Below, in pieces: positions 4,334 through 31,376 of a stretch of DNA of 31,376 bases (positions are counted from its first letter, which is position 1; each line of letters opens with the position of its first letter). The DNA comes from a virus. The position numbers and the translations under genes were made by a program. Location: the UHGV virus genome UHGV-0241516, one strand, 5' to 3'. The notes beneath the pieces are model-generated. The model did not search any database. It worked only from the letters and a program-made list of their open reading frames with translations, and was not told the origin of the DNA.

Positions 4334-5412
4334 CAGAACGGGTCCTCCTGTACTCTGGCTTTTTTCTTTTTCCGCGCGCCGGGGGCTTCAGGTTCAGGCA
4401 GATAAGCATCAGGCGGGCCGACACGGATTTCCGTCAGGGTGCCGTTCTGGTCCTGAGTAAACGTGACTTCCGAAACAAGCAGTTCGGTATTGTCAAAACC
4501 ACAGACCGGATCAAAGACAATCACCCGCTGGTTGGGTTGCCACAGCGTACCGTTACCCTGTCGCCAGCCCTGCACCACATAGGTGGTTTCATCCGTCCGC
4601 GCCGCCCGTTGCCGGGCTTCAAAGTCAGCACGCGCAATACAGCCTGCCCCCGTAGCCTGCCCTGTCTGCCTGATATACATCGGACGGTAACGGGCAATAA
4701 ATGCGTCCTCTGTGCGGGCCCGCAGCGCGGTGGTGGTGGCCTCACCGAAATCATCGTCGTTTCCGGCACGCTGCCCCGCCACCTGGTAAACAGAAAACCG
4801 CTCCCGGATACTCTTCTCCGTATCACAGGAAAGGATGTTTTCCCCAAGTACCAGCGCGGTATGTGCCCGCGTTGAGCCAATACCGCCAATCACCAGCCTG
4901 CCGTGCGGGTCGTCGTAAGCCAGCGCCTGCTGCTGACCGAGTATTTTGTTGATTACCTCAATCACCGTTTCACCGTGATCAGGCTGAACATCAGGAATAA
5001 CACCCGACGGCGCACCGCTGTTCACCACCTCAATACCGAAAGGCGCAGCAAGCGCCTGCGCAATCTGCACCAGCGAGCGTCCGTTAAACTGTGTCGGTTC
5101 GGCTGCACAGTCAATCAGGTCAGCCGTCAGACTACGTCCGGCAATACCGGTGCTGACCGAACGGGCATCGTACCGAACGGGCGTCGCCTCCACCCAGCCG
5201 GTGATCACCAGCTCATCACCAATCAGCACTTCCACTTTTGAACCGTTTTTAATGCGCGGCTGAAGCGTGGTGATACCCTCATCTCCCGGCCACTGGCGAG
5301 TGATCTCCACACTGAAATCCCGCGCCAGCCGTTCAATACCGGCACCGATGCGCACCGATGTCCAGCCATTCCACTCCCGGCCATTTACCCGTAGCGTGAC
5401 GTTATCGTTCAT
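4333..5412 (-). CDS. Baseplate hub / tail protein (Mu gp44, P2 gpD-like)
   Basis: 359 aa. Follows the DNA-circulation gene as in Mu. C-terminus is Lys-rich (GARKKKKARVQEDPF). Confidence 0.7.
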   Translation of the reverse strand: MNDNVTLRVNGREWNGWTSVRIGAGIERLARDFSVEITRQWPGDEGITTLQPRIKNGSKVEVLIGDELVITGWVEATPVRYDARSVSTGIAGRSLTADLIDCAAEPTQFNGRSLVQIAQALAAPFGIEVVNSGAPSGVIPDVQPDHGETVIEVINKILGQQQALAYDDPHGRLVIGGIGSTRAHTALVLGENILSCDTEKSIRERFSVYQVAGQRAGNDDDFGEATTTALRARTEDAFIARYRPMYIRQTGQATGAGCIARADFEARQRAARTDETTYVVQGWRQGNGTLWQPNQRVIVFDPVCGFDNTELLVSEVTFTQDQNGTLTEIRVGPPDAYLPEPEAPGARKKKKARVQEDPF

Positions 5413-6797: not shown

Positions 6798-8633
6798 TTA
6801 CCTGCCAAAGCGCGTATAGCCAACATCATGGCTGACATCAAAACCGCTGGATCGCGTTTCCATAACCCGCATACCCGGAGGCGAATTCACAAAAGAGACC
6901 TTGATCTCACCATCAACTTTTGGCGCAGAAGCTTTGTTAATCATGAAGGGATTCAGGCCTGTGGCACCGGAGGCGTTGTTTGACTGAGCCGGATCTACCG
7001 CCGGATAAGGTGTGTATCCCCGCGCCGGTATTCCCGTCCCATAAGCATCATAAGCACCCGCGCCCCACTGCGCAGAGTTAATGGCATCGACCGTGTCACC
7101 GGAACTGTCGGTAAACCACTCAATAATTGGCTTCAGCTTGTCCCACATATCCTGAAACCACTTAACAACCGGTCCCCAGTTATTGATCACCATCCCCAGC
7201 GGCGACCAGGCAAAAACCTTCTTAAGAAGTTCCCAGCCAGTCTCAAAATAAGGACCAATGGTTTCCCAGAGTTTCTTAAAATAAGGTCCGACAACATCCC
7301 AGTTAGTGATAATTAATCCCGCAGCGAGGGCTATCGCCGTCGCAATCATGCCAATCGGCGTCATCGACATGATCCTGCTGACAATACTGATGGCACCGCC
7401 AACGCCCATCAATCCCAGTTTCAGAATCGCAAGACCGGCAGCAAGCCCGACGACGCCGCGAATAACCCGGGGATTTTCATCCGCAAACTTCGTGAATTTT
7501 TCCCCTAACTCCCCCAGCCATTGCGTGATATTTTTAGCGTCACCAGAAAATGCGCCGCCAATAGCCGCAAGGCCGTTAGTTGCGGTCCCCGTCATTGCCT
7601 CCCACAGGTTGGACAGCGTACCAAGCTGAGCCTGAACACGTTTATTCAGGCTGGCCTGTTTATTCATCTTCTGCTGGATCTGATCGTAGCCATCCTTTCC
7701 TTTATCGATCAGCGCATTGACCACCTGAAGGGTTTCGGCATCATCACCAAATATTGCCTTAAGTACACCGGTTCGCTTAACGTCGGTCAGTTTTCGCAGC
7801 TTTGCCAGTTGCCTGAACATGTTATCAAGACCGCCAAAACTCCCTTTGCCATCAGTAAAATCGAGCTGTACCCCGAGTTTCTGGCGGGCCATGATTTTAT
7901 TGACGTCCCTGATTTTCTTAACGCTTAATCCGGACTGGATAACTTTTCGCAGGGCATTACCTGCCGACTCCCCGTTCATCCCCATCTGATCCATCATGAC
8001 ACTGATGGGGGCAAGACTCTGTGCAGCCTGAAGACCGTCCTTATTCACCATTTTCAGAACAGAACTGGTTTTAGTGAAGAAGGACAACATGTTGGTATCA
8101 TCAACGCCCAGATAAAACGCCTTCTGGATAGTGTCGAACAGCCCCATCATGTCTTCTGACGCCGTTCCGGTAGCATCCTGCATCTTTGCAGCAAACTCAG
8201 CAGCCGCTTCCGGTGTTTTTTTCAGTTGTACCGCAAGATAAGCTGTCGCTTTACCCACACCACCAAGAATGTTTTCTGCCGGGATCCCCTGACGCACCAG
8301 CATCTGCATCATGTTCTGGAAATCAGCCGTTGTACCGGGTAGCTGGTTACCCAGGCCAATAGCCAGTTTATTGATGTCCTGAAAGCTCTTTCCAACCTCG
8401 CCGTTCGCATCCATCATGGCGACTTTCAGCCCGGTGGCGGCGTTTTCCTGATCGGCATAAGATTTCAGGGAAAGCGTCAGACCCGCTGCCAGTCCGCCAC
8501 CAAGCGCCAGCCCACCCTGTGACGCTTCTTCCGCCTGGCGTTTAAATCCCCGGATTTTCTTTTGCATTTTCGACAGCGCGGGAGAAAGCCTGTCGACACC
8601 GGTGATCAACGCCTTAAGCTCAAATTCAGCCAT
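6798..8633 (-). CDS. Tail tape measure protein
   Basis: 611 aa, Ala/Gly-rich with long hydrophobic segments (GVVGLAAGLAILKLGLMGVGGAISIV…). Follows the frameshifted chaperone pair. ATG at 8633-8631. Confidence 0.85.
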   Translation of the reverse strand: MAEFELKALITGVDRLSPALSKMQKKIRGFKRQAEEASQGGLALGGGLAAGLTLSLKSYADQENAATGLKVAMMDANGEVGKSFQDINKLAIGLGNQLPGTTADFQNMMQMLVRQGIPAENILGGVGKATAYLAVQLKKTPEAAAEFAAKMQDATGTASEDMMGLFDTIQKAFYLGVDDTNMLSFFTKTSSVLKMVNKDGLQAAQSLAPISVMMDQMGMNGESAGNALRKVIQSGLSVKKIRDVNKIMARQKLGVQLDFTDGKGSFGGLDNMFRQLAKLRKLTDVKRTGVLKAIFGDDAETLQVVNALIDKGKDGYDQIQQKMNKQASLNKRVQAQLGTLSNLWEAMTGTATNGLAAIGGAFSGDAKNITQWLGELGEKFTKFADENPRVIRGVVGLAAGLAILKLGLMGVGGAISIVSRIMSMTPIGMIATAIALAAGLIITNWDVVGPYFKKLWETIGPYFETGWELLKKVFAWSPLGMVINNWGPVVKWFQDMWDKLKPIIEWFTDSSGDTVDAINSAQWGAGAYDAYGTGIPARGYTPYPAVDPAQSNNASGATGLNPFMINKASAPKVDGEIKVSFVNSPPGMRVMETRSSGFDVSHDVGYTRFGR

Positions 8634-9044
8634 GTGTGCGTTTCTCCTGCTCTATCCTGTTTGCCTGACTGACCAGCAAGGGAATTTCACTGATCGGCAT
8701 ATTCAGCAATTCGAAGGGATTAATGCGCCAGTAACTGGCGCAGTCAAAGAAGCGATCAGTGAGGTATTCAGCCGTCAGGCCTGGAGGAAAAAACCGGCCA
8801 CAAGCCACGCCGCTGCATTCAGGTCTGCCGGAGACATCTGGTCGACAGAGCTTTGCGGCACTTTCGCCAGCCGCACGATGTATTTCGATACCACATGCGC
8901 CAGAAGTCTGACGGACTCATCCTGATTCATCTGGTAGGGATATCCCAGCTCGCGGACATCTTTCCCGGTGGGCTCATCAAACTCCAGTACGGAGAGTGTC
9001 TCGCCATGAGCGGTAATCGGTTTCTTTAACTCAAGCTCTTTCAT
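8626..9044 (-). CDS. Tail assembly chaperone, predicted -1 frameshift fusion product (~139 aa)
   Basis: The -1 frame stays open from the slippery site to a TGA at 8628-8626, overlapping the tape-measure start. Same layout as the conserved G/GT-type chaperone frameshift between tube and tape-measure genes. Confidence 0.65.
8775..9044 (-). CDS. Tail assembly chaperone, short (zero-frame) product
   Basis: 89 aa. ATG at 9044-9042 overlaps the tube stop (TAATG). Ends TGA at 8777-8775. Contains slippery T_TTT_TTC (plus 8787-8793) near its 3' end. Confidence 0.8.
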   Translation of the reverse strand: MKELELKKPITAHGETLSVLEFDEPTGKDVRELGYPYQMNQDESVRLLAHVVSKYIVRLAKVPQSSVDQMSPADLNAAAWLVAGFFLQA

Positions 9045-29530: not shown

Positions 29531-30090
29531 GCGTTAGTTTCTCCACAGTCACGACACGCCACGGCGCCCGGAGCTGCACACTCGCGGGCGTCATTACTTT
29601 CTGAAATGCAAAAAATTTTGTAGACCAGTGCTGCATGCTCCTGCAGCTTCGAAATTGAGAGGTACAGCTCGTCGTTAATTGCTGTCTTCTCATGCGGTTC
29701 CACTACACCGTCTTCAATTGCTGAACGAATCTGTTTTGAATAACTGCCGATCTGTTCAATGACTTCCAGCAGGCGCTGGTTAATATCGGCGTTGTCCACA
29801 TCCTCGACGTCAGGAAGAGACACAAAGACGCCATTTGCAGACTGCGCCACAGCGTCAGCAATGAAGTGAGTTCCACCAGCACGTTGCAAAATCATTGCCC
29901 ATCCCAGCGGGAAAATCTGATCGCCATCGGCACGAAGGCGGTTAAATAATGCGTTCTCTGTTACATCCAGCCAGTCAGCTGCTTCAGCGTAACCACCCGG
30001 CAACTTTGCGATAGTTTTTCTGACAGCTTTCACGTACCACTCAGGCTGTTTTTCTACTTTCCAGTGATGCTTACCCACGGTTAGCCTCAT
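29527..30090 (-). CDS. Early regulatory protein, CII-like (CP76 family) or YdaT-like; uncertain
   Basis: 187 aa, immediately downstream of the Cro-like gene. Family tentative. Start could be ATG 30090 or GTG 12 nt in. Confidence 0.45.
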
Positions 30091-30121
30091 CGTTCTGTGG
30101 TTAAAAATTGAAAGTGTTCTG

Positions 30122-30322
30122 CTAATCTTTCGGATAGATATCCGGTCTTAAGTCAGATTTCGTAATTGCACCTGACGTGCATTGCTCAAGTTTTTTAGCC
30201 AGCACAAAACTGGCTTTTTTATAGCCATTGAAAACCAGCCGTAAGTAGCCAGGTGTTGAGCCAACTTTTCCGGCCAACTCGCCCTGCTGTTCTTTGGTTA
30301 AAGAGTCCCAATACGCTTTCAT
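30122..30322 (-). CDS. Cro-like HTH repressor
   Basis: 66 aa (MKAYWDSLTKEQQGELAGKVGSTPGYLRLVFNGYKKASFVLAKKLEQ…). ATG at 30322-30320 with GGAGG upstream. The ORF track's 167-aa frame is a spurious upstream extension. Confidence 0.75.
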   Translation of the reverse strand: MKAYWDSLTKEQQGELAGKVGSTPGYLRLVFNGYKKASFVLAKKLEQCTSGAITKSDLRPDIYPKD

Positions 30323-30412
30323 ACAATATGTACCTCCGGTGTACATATTACATGATTGAAATGAACCTTCAAGATACTTGTACCTTAACGGTACAAGGGT
30401 TTTAATTTCGTT
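30323..30412. promoter_or_regulatory. Immunity switch: two palindromic operators and candidate divergent promoters
   Basis: Palindromes AATATGTAC-N7-GTACATATT (30325-30349) and CTTGTACC-N5-GGTACAAG (30377-30397). Candidate PR-like promoter on minus: -35 at plus 30367-30372, 16-bp spacer, -10 at plus 30345-30350. Candidate PRM-like on plus: TTGTAC (30378-30383), 17 bp, TTTAAT (30401-30406). Confidence 0.6.
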
Positions 30413-31087
30413 ATGAAAACAATCCATGACATCCGGCGGTCTAACGCCAGAAAACTGAGAGATGGTGTTGGCGGGAATTCTTCCTTTGCCACTATGATTG
30501 ATCGCGAGCCAACCCAGACCAGCAGGTTTATGGGAGATGGTGCTACTAAAAATATCGGTGACAGCATGGCACGACACATCGAAAAATGTTTCGACCTGCC
30601 TGTCGGATGGCTCGATCAAGAACACCAGACAACGAACATCACAAAAAAACCTGATGTTTCAATCACTAATAAACAAATCACATTAGTCCCTGTCATATCA
30701 TGGGTACAGGCCGGAGCATGGAAAGAAGTTGGATATTCTGAGGTTGATTTGAGCACAGCAGAAACGTATCCCTGCCCTGTACCCTGTGGGGAAATGACTT
30801 ATATCTTGCGGGTGATAGGTGATTCAATGATTGATGAGTACCGCCCGGGAGACATGATTTTTGTCGATCCTGAAGTACCTGCCTGCCACGGTGACGACGT
30901 TATTGCATTGATGCACGATACAGGCGAAACCACCTTCAAAAGGTTGATAGAAGATGGGACACAGCGTTATCTCAAAGCGTTAAACCCAAACTGGCCTGAG
31001 CCTTACATTAAGATCAACGGTAATTGCTCTATAATTGGTACAGTGATTTTCTCAGGAAAACCAAGAAGATACAAAATCAAAGCCTAA
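30413..31087 (+). CDS. CI-like repressor (HTH + S24 LexA-like autocleavage domain)
   Basis: 224 aa. ATG at 30413, TAA at 31085-31087. C-terminal half has the S24 peptidase signature (…VIGDSMIDEYRPGDMIFVDP…). Confidence 0.85.
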   Translation: MKTIHDIRRSNARKLRDGVGGNSSFATMIDREPTQTSRFMGDGATKNIGDSMARHIEKCFDLPVGWLDQEHQTTNITKKPDVSITNKQITLVPVISWVQAGAWKEVGYSEVDLSTAETYPCPVPCGEMTYILRVIGDSMIDEYRPGDMIFVDPEVPACHGDDVIALMHDTGETTFKRLIEDGTQRYLKALNPNWPEPYIKINGNCSIIGTVIFSGKPRRYKIKA

Positions 31088-31099
31088 TCAATGTTTATG

Positions 31100-31122
31100 A
31101 ACCTGCTTCGGCAGGTTTTTTT
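31100..31122 (+). terminator. Rho-independent terminator after the repressor gene
   Basis: AACCTGC-ttcg-GCAGGTT then TTTTTTT, 13 nt after the CI stop. Confidence 0.8.
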
Positions 31123-31126
31123 ATAC

Positions 31127-31154
31127 TTGACAATGTACCTTTGAGATACATAAT
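31127..31154 (+). promoter_or_regulatory. Near-consensus sigma70 promoter (PL-like) with operator-like TGTACC motifs
   Basis: TTGACA (31127-31132), 16-bp spacer, CATAAT (31149-31154). TGTACC at 31134-31139 and 31154-31159, the same hexamer found in both operator palindromes. Confidence 0.6.
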
Positions 31155-31321
31155 GTACCCAAGCGAAACAACGAACAGGCAGGACGCCCACGAAGTAGCC
31201 GCCTGGGGCATATGAAGTCCAGGATGATTCGTTAGCAACAAAAAAGCGCCCTACAGGACGCTTAGCTCTTTAACAATCTGGTCCCCATCAACAAGTAACT
31301 GATAACTTGAGGAGGTGTGAA

Positions 31322-31376
31322 ATGCACAAAACAGAACCCAAAATCGTCGCGCCTGGCTACACAGATGAGGAAATTT
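31322..31376 (+). CDS. 5' end of a plus-strand early gene (runs off the window)
   Basis: ATG at 31322 with GAGGAGG 6 nt upstream; MHKTEPKIVAPGYTDEEI… Only 18 codons visible. Confidence 0.45.
   Translation, partial: MHKTEPKIVAPGYTDEEI

Follow-up and report, generated by a model that had tools for sequence, protein, structure and literature searches.

How do lambdoid prophages of the SfV, e14 and ST64B type, which have no N protein, drive long early operons? The question is raised by the right end of UHGV-0241516, a viral DNA of 31,376 nt (analysed at its full length and called the window hereafter), where an immunity region made up of a cro-like gene and a cI-like repressor gene is followed by a promoter, referred to here as pL, and by an untranslated leader of about 161 nt, counted from the predicted start at ~31161. 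We propose this leader as a candidate answer. The promoter, its operator and the terminator in front of it are textbook elements that records of related phages already annotate; the novelty sits in the leader, which holds an apparently undescribed, very common structured RNA together with a boxA of the type known from ribosomal RNA (rrn) operons, in lambdoid prophages without N. Taken as a whole, an early-left control unit with a leader that gives pL N-independent antitermination is in our view the probable explanation of the locus. Its central element, the structured RNA, lies at the following positions.

31170-31233, plus strand: conserved structured leader RNA of 64 nt, with covariation in helices P1 and P3; 89.5 bits, single copy.
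31170-31175 with 31228-31233, plus strand: helix P1, the closing helix; five of its six pairs show changes on both sides.
31178-31180 with 31186-31188, plus strand: putative helix P2, 3 bp (GGC/GCC) with GGA in the loop.
31202-31206 with 31219-31223, plus strand: helix P3; all five pairs show changes on both sides.

That this RNA structure is real can be taken as all but certain. A fold derived by eye fits a MAFFT alignment of 107 variants, in which 93.4% of the cells are paired compared with 70.3% after shuffling, and the covariation score of the same alignment is 0.557 against 0.148 for shuffled versions, a value that none of 500 shuffles reached, with slid controls staying at or below 0.135. 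Double changes are present in 10 of the 14 pairs; one pair of P1, for example, is found as CG (31), GC (27), AU (21) and UA (18), and RNAalifold returned the same helices independently. The helices surround about 30 unpaired, invariant bases, arranged in the blocks CCCACGAAGUAGC, GGCRUAYGAA and AUGA. The invariance of these blocks is partly due to the construction of the search pattern; the same blocks are seen in BLAST hits, which are free of the pattern. A pseudoknot between loop and junction was considered and not adopted, as its columns are invariant and no covariation is available for it. The structure is local: the minimum free energy of the whole leader is -39.2 kcal/mol versus -38.5 +/- 3.7 kcal/mol for shuffled sequences (z = -0.19), and the leader as such is not unusually structured.

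The comparison of G.U pairs with A.C mismatches gave an ambiguous answer as to which strand is transcribed, and the orientation of the nearest promoter was used instead. A promoter matching at least 9 of 12 consensus positions was found within 70 nt upstream in 155 of 195 contexts on the plus strand, compared with 3 of 195 on the opposite strand and 16 of 195 control windows, which indicates that a transcript started close by has the RNA as its first structure. In the window, P1 begins about 9 nt past the predicted transcription start, a place just past the promoter that recurs in more than 100 contexts, and in most loci it is found ~9-35 nt past the -10 hexamer. The first gene and its distance from the leader RNA vary, from ~20 to more than 170 nt.

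The segment 31167-31232 is kept at 80-95% identity in unannotated DNA of about 50 temperate phages with differing flanks, among them SfII, ST64B, ZF40, SPN3UB, SEN34, mEp237, mEp460_4F5, phiNP, YeP1-3, AH07 and pAEv1818, and in each annotated case it is located just downstream of an unrelated repressor gene. It is also present in the terminal repeat of the T5-like Providencia phage PR1, where it follows a pre-early promoter upstream of the pre-early genes A2 and A1 and where CGCTCTTTAAAAA starts 7 nt past it. A pattern scan of IMG/VR yielded at least 120 loci. Furthermore, the RNA was found, never annotated, in 1493 of 5426 complete Escherichia coli genomes (27%) and, with one genome taken per species, in about 76 species, all of them Enterobacterales save for chance or contaminant hits. 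This wide conservation within the Enterobacterales suggests a host target, namely RNA polymerase, and the invariance of the loops across unrelated phages likewise implies a conserved target of host type.

Searches with the 4227 covariance models of Rfam 15 gave no match on the plus strand over 31170-31233, even at E <= 10. At the same cut-off the segment 30000-31376 gave only chance-level hits to small RNAs (STnc370, STnc50 and rsmX), which are caused by the terminator of the repressor gene, and at the gathering threshold a prophage 100% identical to this region gave tRNA only. Rfam is also without a family that detects the put RNA of phage HK022. The leader RNA, the boxA and the reverse terminator described below are annotated in none of the public records of SfV, SfIV, Ayreon and E. 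coli K-12 e14. The RNA is thus apparently undescribed, being unannotated and absent from Rfam; earlier literature on put-like RNAs, SfV or e14 could hold a prior description.

The leaders of related phages are mosaics. Ayreon, cdtI and the Stx2c phages share the segment from cI to pL and diverge about 15 nt past the transcription start, SfV diverges at ~31236, and Kati and others share only the sequence from 31170 onward. Ayreon, cdtI, the Stx2c phages and 2H10 combine the same cI, terminator and pL/OL segment with a different conserved non-coding leader of about 110 nt (Ayreon 4888-5000, replacing the window sequence from 31180), and this second module is also present, unannotated, in phages P1, P7, D6, phiV10 and mEp460 and in Stx2a phages. 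It contains CGGCG-N11-CGUCG; having no BLAST link to put, it was not accepted as a put relative. Another recurrent motif, GCGCAGCAGG-N8-12-ACGTTCCGCCAGCCTGGCGATAAGGGCAA with the hairpin CGCCAGCCTGGCG, follows the leader RNA in many phages (for instance at 2060-2130 of IMG/VR locus L011, and in L013 and L024) and precedes it in a few (L044, L111); it may be another leader RNA module.

In the window, two further elements follow the structured RNA.

31238-31263, minus strand: hairpin (31244-31263) and A6, read as T6 on the minus strand; predicted intrinsic terminator for minus-strand transcription coming from a convergent moron.
31264-31276, plus strand: boxA-like sequence AGCTCTTTAACAA(T), directly after the hairpin, at about +104 of the 161-nt leader.

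The hairpin scores as an intrinsic terminator on the minus strand only, where it has a U.G pair, the T6 tract and a folding energy of -11.5 kcal/mol, compared with -7.5 kcal/mol, a C.A mismatch and no U tract on the plus strand. The sequence right after it is AGCTCTTTAACAAT. A direct comparison with the rrnB leader showed that GCUCUUUAACAAU (31265-31277) is identical to the rrnB boxA over 13 of 13 nt, and the 11-mer GCTCTTTAACA has a single exact copy in the window. When mismatches are allowed, 12 boxA-like sites are found in the window against 6.7 expected, which is no enrichment, and a site with two mismatches inside cro was judged to be due to chance. The unit of A6, hairpin and boxA recurs in at least five different downstream contexts and the boxA is kept wherever the unit occurs; a boxA-like sequence is located within 200 nt of the leader RNA in 21 of 113 variants, including that of the T5-like phage PR1. 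Complexes of boxA with Nus factors have been reported to protect untranslated RNAs from Rho (PMC7665894). We give the boxA at 31264-31276 an even chance of being functional. The suggestion of the sequence-only reading that the leader could hold an antitermination site is largely upheld as to the kind of element, with a boxA identical to that of rrn and a covarying RNA at the position of HK022 putL, in a leader that is not unusually structured along its whole length (z value above); the role itself is putative.

Upstream of the leader RNA, the segment between the stop codon of the repressor gene and the transcription start contains the following elements.

31099-31122, plus strand: intrinsic terminator of the cI transcript, with an 8-bp GC-rich stem, a TTCG loop and a T7 tail.
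31127-31154, plus strand: promoter pL, -35 hexamer TTGACA (31127-31132), 16-nt spacer, -10 hexamer CATAAT (31149-31154), matching the consensus at 11 of 12 positions; predicted start ~31161.
31133-31151, either strand: predicted operator OL1, ATGTAC-CTTTGAG-ATACAT, which fills the pL spacer; one mismatch to the dyads of the right operator (OR) region.
31153-31171, either strand: possible operator OL2, ATGTAC-CCAAGCG-AAACAA, overlapping the end of the -10 hexamer and the transcription start.

The terminator, with its stem GAACCTGC-TTCG-GCAGGTTT at 31099-31118 and T7 at 31116-31122, has a folding energy of -11.6 kcal/mol on the plus strand, and compensatory substitutions preserve the stem in relatives (for example AACCTGC/GCAGGTT versus AGCCCGC/GCGGGTT). 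pL begins 40 nt past the cI stop codon, in the same direction as cI, and is the top promoter match within 29900-31376, a 1.5-kb stretch for which the scan expects 1.7 matches by chance. Copies of TGTACC at 31134 and 31154 both overlap it. The operator consensus TGTAC-N7-GTACA was defined from two perfect dyads in the OR region, and dyads with at most one mismatch occur only three times in the 31 kb, namely at both OR sites and at 31134-31150, where chance would give about one. Among some 20 diverged versions of pL, from E. coli, Atlantibacter, Enterobacter and other genera, the -35 and -10 hexamers and the OL1 half-sites are invariant, the central 7 bp of OL1 are the most variable columns, and in several species OL1 is a perfect palindrome. 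Conserved half-sites around a variable centre and a compensated terminator stem are the signature expected of an operator for a dimeric repressor and of a real terminator. In one IMG/VR relative (L063) the operator-bearing segment is tandemly duplicated, with ATGTACCCCATGGACACACA present twice between the -35 hexamer and the leader.

The sequence-only reading had described this layout well: the strong terminator right after the repressor gene, the TTGACA-16-CATAAT promoter and two copies of TGTACC over it, in the hexamer of the OR palindromes, are all present, the second copy being the weaker one, and a gene with a strong ribosome-binding site begins close to the distance of about 170 bp that it gave, within a few bases (GAGGAGG at 31309-31315, ATG at 31322-31324, 168 nt past the -10 hexamer). 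Its likening of the region to a pL/OL unit is supported by the OR-type half-sites, by the position of the promoter directly past the cI terminator and by the fact that the promoter heads an operon with xis and int in a 100%-identical prophage. Only the orientation, pL on the same strand as cI, had been taken for an oddity, and this is in fact the normal layout, since cI and pL are both transcribed leftward in lambda. We therefore consider it very probable that the promoter, operator and terminator after cI are the pL/OL unit of a lambdoid prophage of the SfV/SfIV/e14 type.

The remainder of the immunity region is made up as follows.

30122-30322, minus strand: cro-like gene.
30329-30395, either strand: OR region between cro and cI, with two perfect 17-bp dyads TGTAC-N7-GTACA at 30329-30345 and 30379-30395.
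30413-31087, plus strand: cI-type repressor gene of the ymfK family, with a helix-turn-helix N-terminus and a Peptidase_S24 autocleavage domain at the C-terminus; RefSeq name 'ymfK: LexA family protein'.

The two dyads, without any mismatch, are the sole perfect TGTAC-N7-GTACA sites in the window. TGTACC occurs between cro and cI at 30329, 30379 and, on the minus strand, 30390, and in the whole window 22 times against 10.0 +/- 3.2 expected. By eye, just two operators are evident in the OR region, 50 bp apart. A candidate for the repressor maintenance promoter pRM, TTGTAC-17-TTTAAT, can be seen within 30323-30412; it ends about 7 nt before the ATG of cI, so that cI may have a leaderless mRNA as in lambda. 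A candidate for the rightward promoter pR, TTGAAG-16-TAATAT, is located on the minus strand and is overlapped by the operator at 30329-30345.

The region is 98.5% identical to the Shigella phages SfIV and SfV, and many E. coli genomes contain prophages that match it at 100% identity and in which the repressor is named ymfK. The immunity regions of SfV, SfIV, Ayreon and K-12 e14 (ymfK-ymfJ) are the same element, their cI, terminator, promoter and operators being 98-100% identical; the terminator and a 'putative operator region' are marked in the record of SfV, the same terminator and the promoter in that of Ayreon. In the 100%-identical prophage of strain S163-2, pL is followed by a gene for a 68-amino-acid protein, a convergent gene for a 144-amino-acid protein of the 'ECs1072 family', yfdR, a phage protein gene, yfdT, xis, int, tRNA-Thr and proA. 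As this operon runs to xis, int and the tRNA-Thr gene, the promoter is the pL/OL analogue of the same prophage. The window contains the start of the first of these genes.

31309-31376, plus strand: start of the 68-amino-acid gene (ribosome-binding site GAGGAGG, ATG at 31322), cut by the window end; WP_000549623.1, phrog_1744 (E 6e-35), function unknown.

Its product begins MHKTEPKIVAPGYTDEEI (coding sequence 7623-7829 in the 100%-identical prophage, corresponding to the window from 31322 onward). The sequence-only reading had expected an N-like, recombination or integrase gene here, and this expectation failed: the gene encodes a phrog_1744 protein without an arginine-rich motif. Neither the 68- nor the 144-amino-acid protein matches a Pfam family or a PADLOC entry, and both fall only into PHROGs of unknown function. 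The 3' ends of the two genes (phrog_1744 and phrog_5286) overlap by 29 nt, and two minus-strand terminators follow the 144-amino-acid gene, one of them inside the 68-amino-acid gene; from this arrangement the pair (7623-8235 of the 100%-identical prophage) may be a moron or a defence-type unit whose genes affect each other in antisense. Between the ECs1072-family gene and yfdR, a stretch that is common to Ayreon and SfIV (8379-8698 of the 100%-identical prophage; L001 5640-6100) is annotated solely as a frameshifted hypothetical gene; it is GC-rich, looks non-coding and matches no Rfam family at the gathering threshold.

In E. coli K-12 the e14 element has an identical terminator, promoter and OL1 between ymfK and ymfJ. 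MG1655 carries the leader RNA there as well (70.5 bits; minus strand of locus L243, 3612-3678, corresponding to NC_000913 ~1,202,111-1,202,177), with a variant P3 loop and without the hairpin-boxA unit. In K-12 the SOS response reportedly induces ymfJ, intE and ymfM at a late stage, for which the authors invoke slow cleavage of a CI-like repressor (PMC11002266). We infer that the ymfK-type repressor represses pL, and these K-12 expression data support this indirectly.

Absence of an N protein is a feature that this prophage shares with its relatives. SfIV, SfV and SfII have been reported to lack N, cII and cIII (PMC3851460), no N gene is present in the RefSeq annotation of the 100%-identical prophage, and none is listed in any of 10 annotated contexts. 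A heuristic scan from 26 kb to the window end at 31.4 kb found no small arginine-rich open reading frame, and the first gene product does not resemble lambda N in this respect either. A nut site would consist of boxA followed by a boxB hairpin in both operons; here the hairpin precedes boxA, and no second boxA is found downstream of cro.

According to the mechanism that we propose, the cI transcript would end at its intrinsic terminator, and the near-consensus pL begins six bases further on, with OL1 in the spacer and a weaker site over the -10 hexamer and the start. In a lysogen the ymfK-type repressor would shut pL, and upon RecA-stimulated autocleavage of the repressor pL would fire leftward, its transcript running through the 68-amino-acid gene and past the convergent moron to the genes from yfdR to xis and int. 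The boxA would recruit NusB and NusE, together with NusA, NusG and SuhB, as in rrn operons and the leaders of CRISPR arrays, and so suppress Rho, while the structured RNA would be a cis-acting elongation or antitermination element analogous to HK022 putL with a different fold. On the minus strand, the hairpin at 31244-31263 would end transcription from the moron before it could proceed in antisense through pL and cI. Such a leader most likely equips pL transcription with N-independent antitermination. For the structured RNA taken by itself, a function in antitermination or antipausing is a tentative assignment made by analogy. The grounds for a putative put-like role are its position, the absence of N, the host-type target implied by the invariant loops in unrelated phages, the link with boxA, and the fact that a T5-like phage has the RNA after a pre-early promoter.

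Several observations weigh against this explanation. The boxA accompanies the leader RNA in only about 20% of the variants. No second copy of the RNA and no copy on the pR side was found in the window or in 80 loci of 8-15 kb, and with a single left copy the rightward operon would need something else. A need for antitermination is not obvious, as there are few strong co-directional intrinsic terminators in the left operon of this prophage and at least one such terminator in only 25 of 60 sampled loci. The covariance model of the leader RNA gave no hit against putL and putR of HK022 or putL of HK639, and a BLAST search with putL returned 24 records, none of them common to the set of the leader RNA. 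As to the structure, helix P2 is without covariation support in the 107-variant alignment because its columns are invariant, partly through construction of the search pattern, and A.C mismatches in the stems, which would be G.U pairs on the other strand, outnumber G.U pairs, a surplus that comes from two clades. At the promoter, the OL2 dyad (31154-31170), with its centre 20 bp from that of OL1, has two mismatches; since chance alone would give about 12 sites of this quality, it is not significant by itself. In relatives its left half is kept and its right half is never GTACA. Finally, a GGA is found in the P2 loop of 173 of 177 variants even though bases and length of the loop change (AGGAC, AUGGA, AAGGAAA), and a second GGA, within GGAUGA, follows about 40 nt downstream in 161 of the 177.

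In the 3 kb downstream of the leader RNA, terminators directed against pL are four to five times more frequent than co-directional ones (2.1 versus 0.47 per locus in 60 loci). This excess suggests that reverse-oriented morons or insulators are widespread in early-left regions.

The conserved GGA motifs lead to the alternative that survives best, although we think it improbable: the leader RNA could be a dock for CsrA or another host RNA-binding protein, which would tie early-left output to the physiology of the host by acting on mRNA stability, Rho access or translation. CsrA prefers A(N)GGA in hairpin loops and paired sites, and the invariant unpaired bases would also imply a conserved host partner. 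Such a dock would leave the largest invariant blocks, CCCACGAAGUAGC and GGCRUAYGAA, unexplained, and at ~20 to more than 170 nt from the first gene it would cover no Shine-Dalgarno sequence. In addition, a few variants are without one of the GGA motifs, and CsrA occurs far beyond the Enterobacterales whereas the leader RNA does not.

Considerably less probable is a riboswitch-like aptamer that would sense a ligand or signal and control the transcription or translation of the early-left genes. With covarying helices set around numerous invariant nucleotides of the junctions, right after a promoter, the RNA does look like a typical aptamer, and in the window a hairpin follows 10 nt past it. However, there is no conserved expression platform, which argues against a riboswitch: P1 is followed in different loci by a hairpin and boxA, by a Shine-Dalgarno sequence ~20 nt away or by other RNA modules. 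The hairpin in the window is a poor terminator on the plus strand on account of its energy and missing U tract, and the lack of an Rfam match also speaks against this idea.

About as remote, and perhaps marginally more so, is the view that the RNA stabilizes the 5' end of the pL mRNA or is part of a small RNA that ends at the hairpin at 31244-31263. It is the first structure of the transcript in all contexts, and the class of leaders to which the window belongs has a hairpin ~85-100 nt from the start. The distance between promoter and P1 varies, however, and in most loci the ~9-35 nt past the -10 hexamer noted above leave single-stranded 5' ends, which at such a length are too long for classical 5' protection. 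A stabilizing hairpin has no need of ~30 invariant unpaired bases either, a hairpin past the leader RNA is missing from most variants, and the one in the window has no U tract on the plus strand.

A classical N/nutL system, with the boxA as part of a nut site and an N-like phage protein, encoded elsewhere, that reads it, seems to us very improbable. A boxA of consensus quality in a pL leader would fit, and the N-like gene of mEp021, encoding Gp17, is located in an unusual position (PMC11893012). Against this, N was neither reported in SfIV, SfV and SfII nor annotated, the immunity and early regions contain no small arginine-rich open reading frame, the sole near match to boxA on the other side (two mismatches) lies inside cro rather than downstream of it, and the order of hairpin and boxA is that of rrn and not that of lambda. 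Finally, we can hardly credit that pL is the promoter of a moron and independent of the repressor, or that it matches the consensus by chance and has nothing to do with immunity: the 1.7 chance matches expected in the scanned stretch would allow it, but the 11 of 12 match is invariant in all relatives, the dyad in the spacer has conserved half-sites and a variable centre, and the K-12 copy is SOS-induced with CI-like kinetics.

If the leader RNA does modify the host RNA polymerase, it would, alone or with boxA, give lambdoid phages without N (SfV, SfIV, e14, ST64B, ZF40, mEp237 and others) a processive early transcription that resists terminators and Rho, and it would do the same for the pre-early operon of a T5-like phage. 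Antitermination by RNA only, as in put, is regarded as a rarity of HK022-like phages; on this reading the leader RNA would rank with the most frequent regulatory RNAs that phages have in Enterobacterales, and K-12 itself carries it. Owing to the e14 copy its function can be decided with existing strains, SOS induction, public RNA-seq and crosslinking-immunoprecipitation (CLIP) data and simple reporter fusions. Even if the RNA turned out to be a site for CsrA or another host factor, it would link the output of prophage induction to host physiology.

Several known systems can be compared with this locus. Lambda pL/OL-nutL-N has in common with it a sigma-70 promoter that is co-directional with and located past the repressor gene, OR-type operators, a leftward operon to xis and int, and a long leader with a boxA. 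In lambda there are three operators, whereas here one is strong and one weak; there is no N gene here, the first gene encoding the 68-amino-acid protein of unknown function; the boxA is the rrn-type GCUCUUUAACAA and not the lambda variant; the hairpin is located before boxA rather than after it; and an additional conserved structured RNA, not present in lambda, occupies the 5' end of the leader.

The leaders of rrn operons, with their order boxB-boxA-boxC, resemble the pL leader in the 13-nt boxA identity, in a hairpin right upstream that takes the place of boxB, and in being untranslated RNA past a strong promoter, where Rho would otherwise act. Here the operon is an early operon of a phage, no boxC-like UGUGUGGG follows, and the hairpin, unlike boxB, is more stable on the opposite strand and built as a terminator for it. 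The boxA upstream of CRISPR arrays is likewise located in untranslated RNA. The leaders of flhDC and pgaA, which are bound by CsrA, likewise carry a GGA in the loop of a short hairpin and another one about 40 nt further on, at the 5' end of the mRNA; the leader RNA differs from them by its large invariant blocks and by having no overlap with a ribosome-binding site, and CsrA binding to it is putative.

The closest parallel in position is putL of HK022 and HK639, an RNA of ~65-70 nt that starts a few nt past the pL start in lambdoid phages without N and is conserved across phages of differing immunity that are essentially restricted to Enterobacterales; HK639, like the phage described here, has only the left copy. 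Besides its putL-like RNA, the HK639 record annotates an 'M3-like RNA' (37910-37969), located past cII in the right operon. By cryo-electron microscopy, put is made of two neighbouring stem-loops and has a triplex but lacks a closing helix (PMC9378689), whereas in the leader RNA P1 closes a small hairpin and P3. The words CGAAC and GGAUGA, which seem by eye to be shared, are no sign of homology, as 'CAGGAUGA' is the 3' strand of P3 plus the junction here and a loop in put. With no hit of the covariance model, disjoint BLAST sets and a different topology, membership of the leader RNA in the put family is rejected. The two also differ in spread, the leader RNA being present in 1493 E. coli genomes and put in 24 phage records. 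It could be a functional analogue of put all the same, and, somewhat more tentatively than the assignment of antitermination as such, the leader RNA may represent another class of cis-acting RNAs, with no structural relation to put, that like put modify the RNA polymerase of the host.

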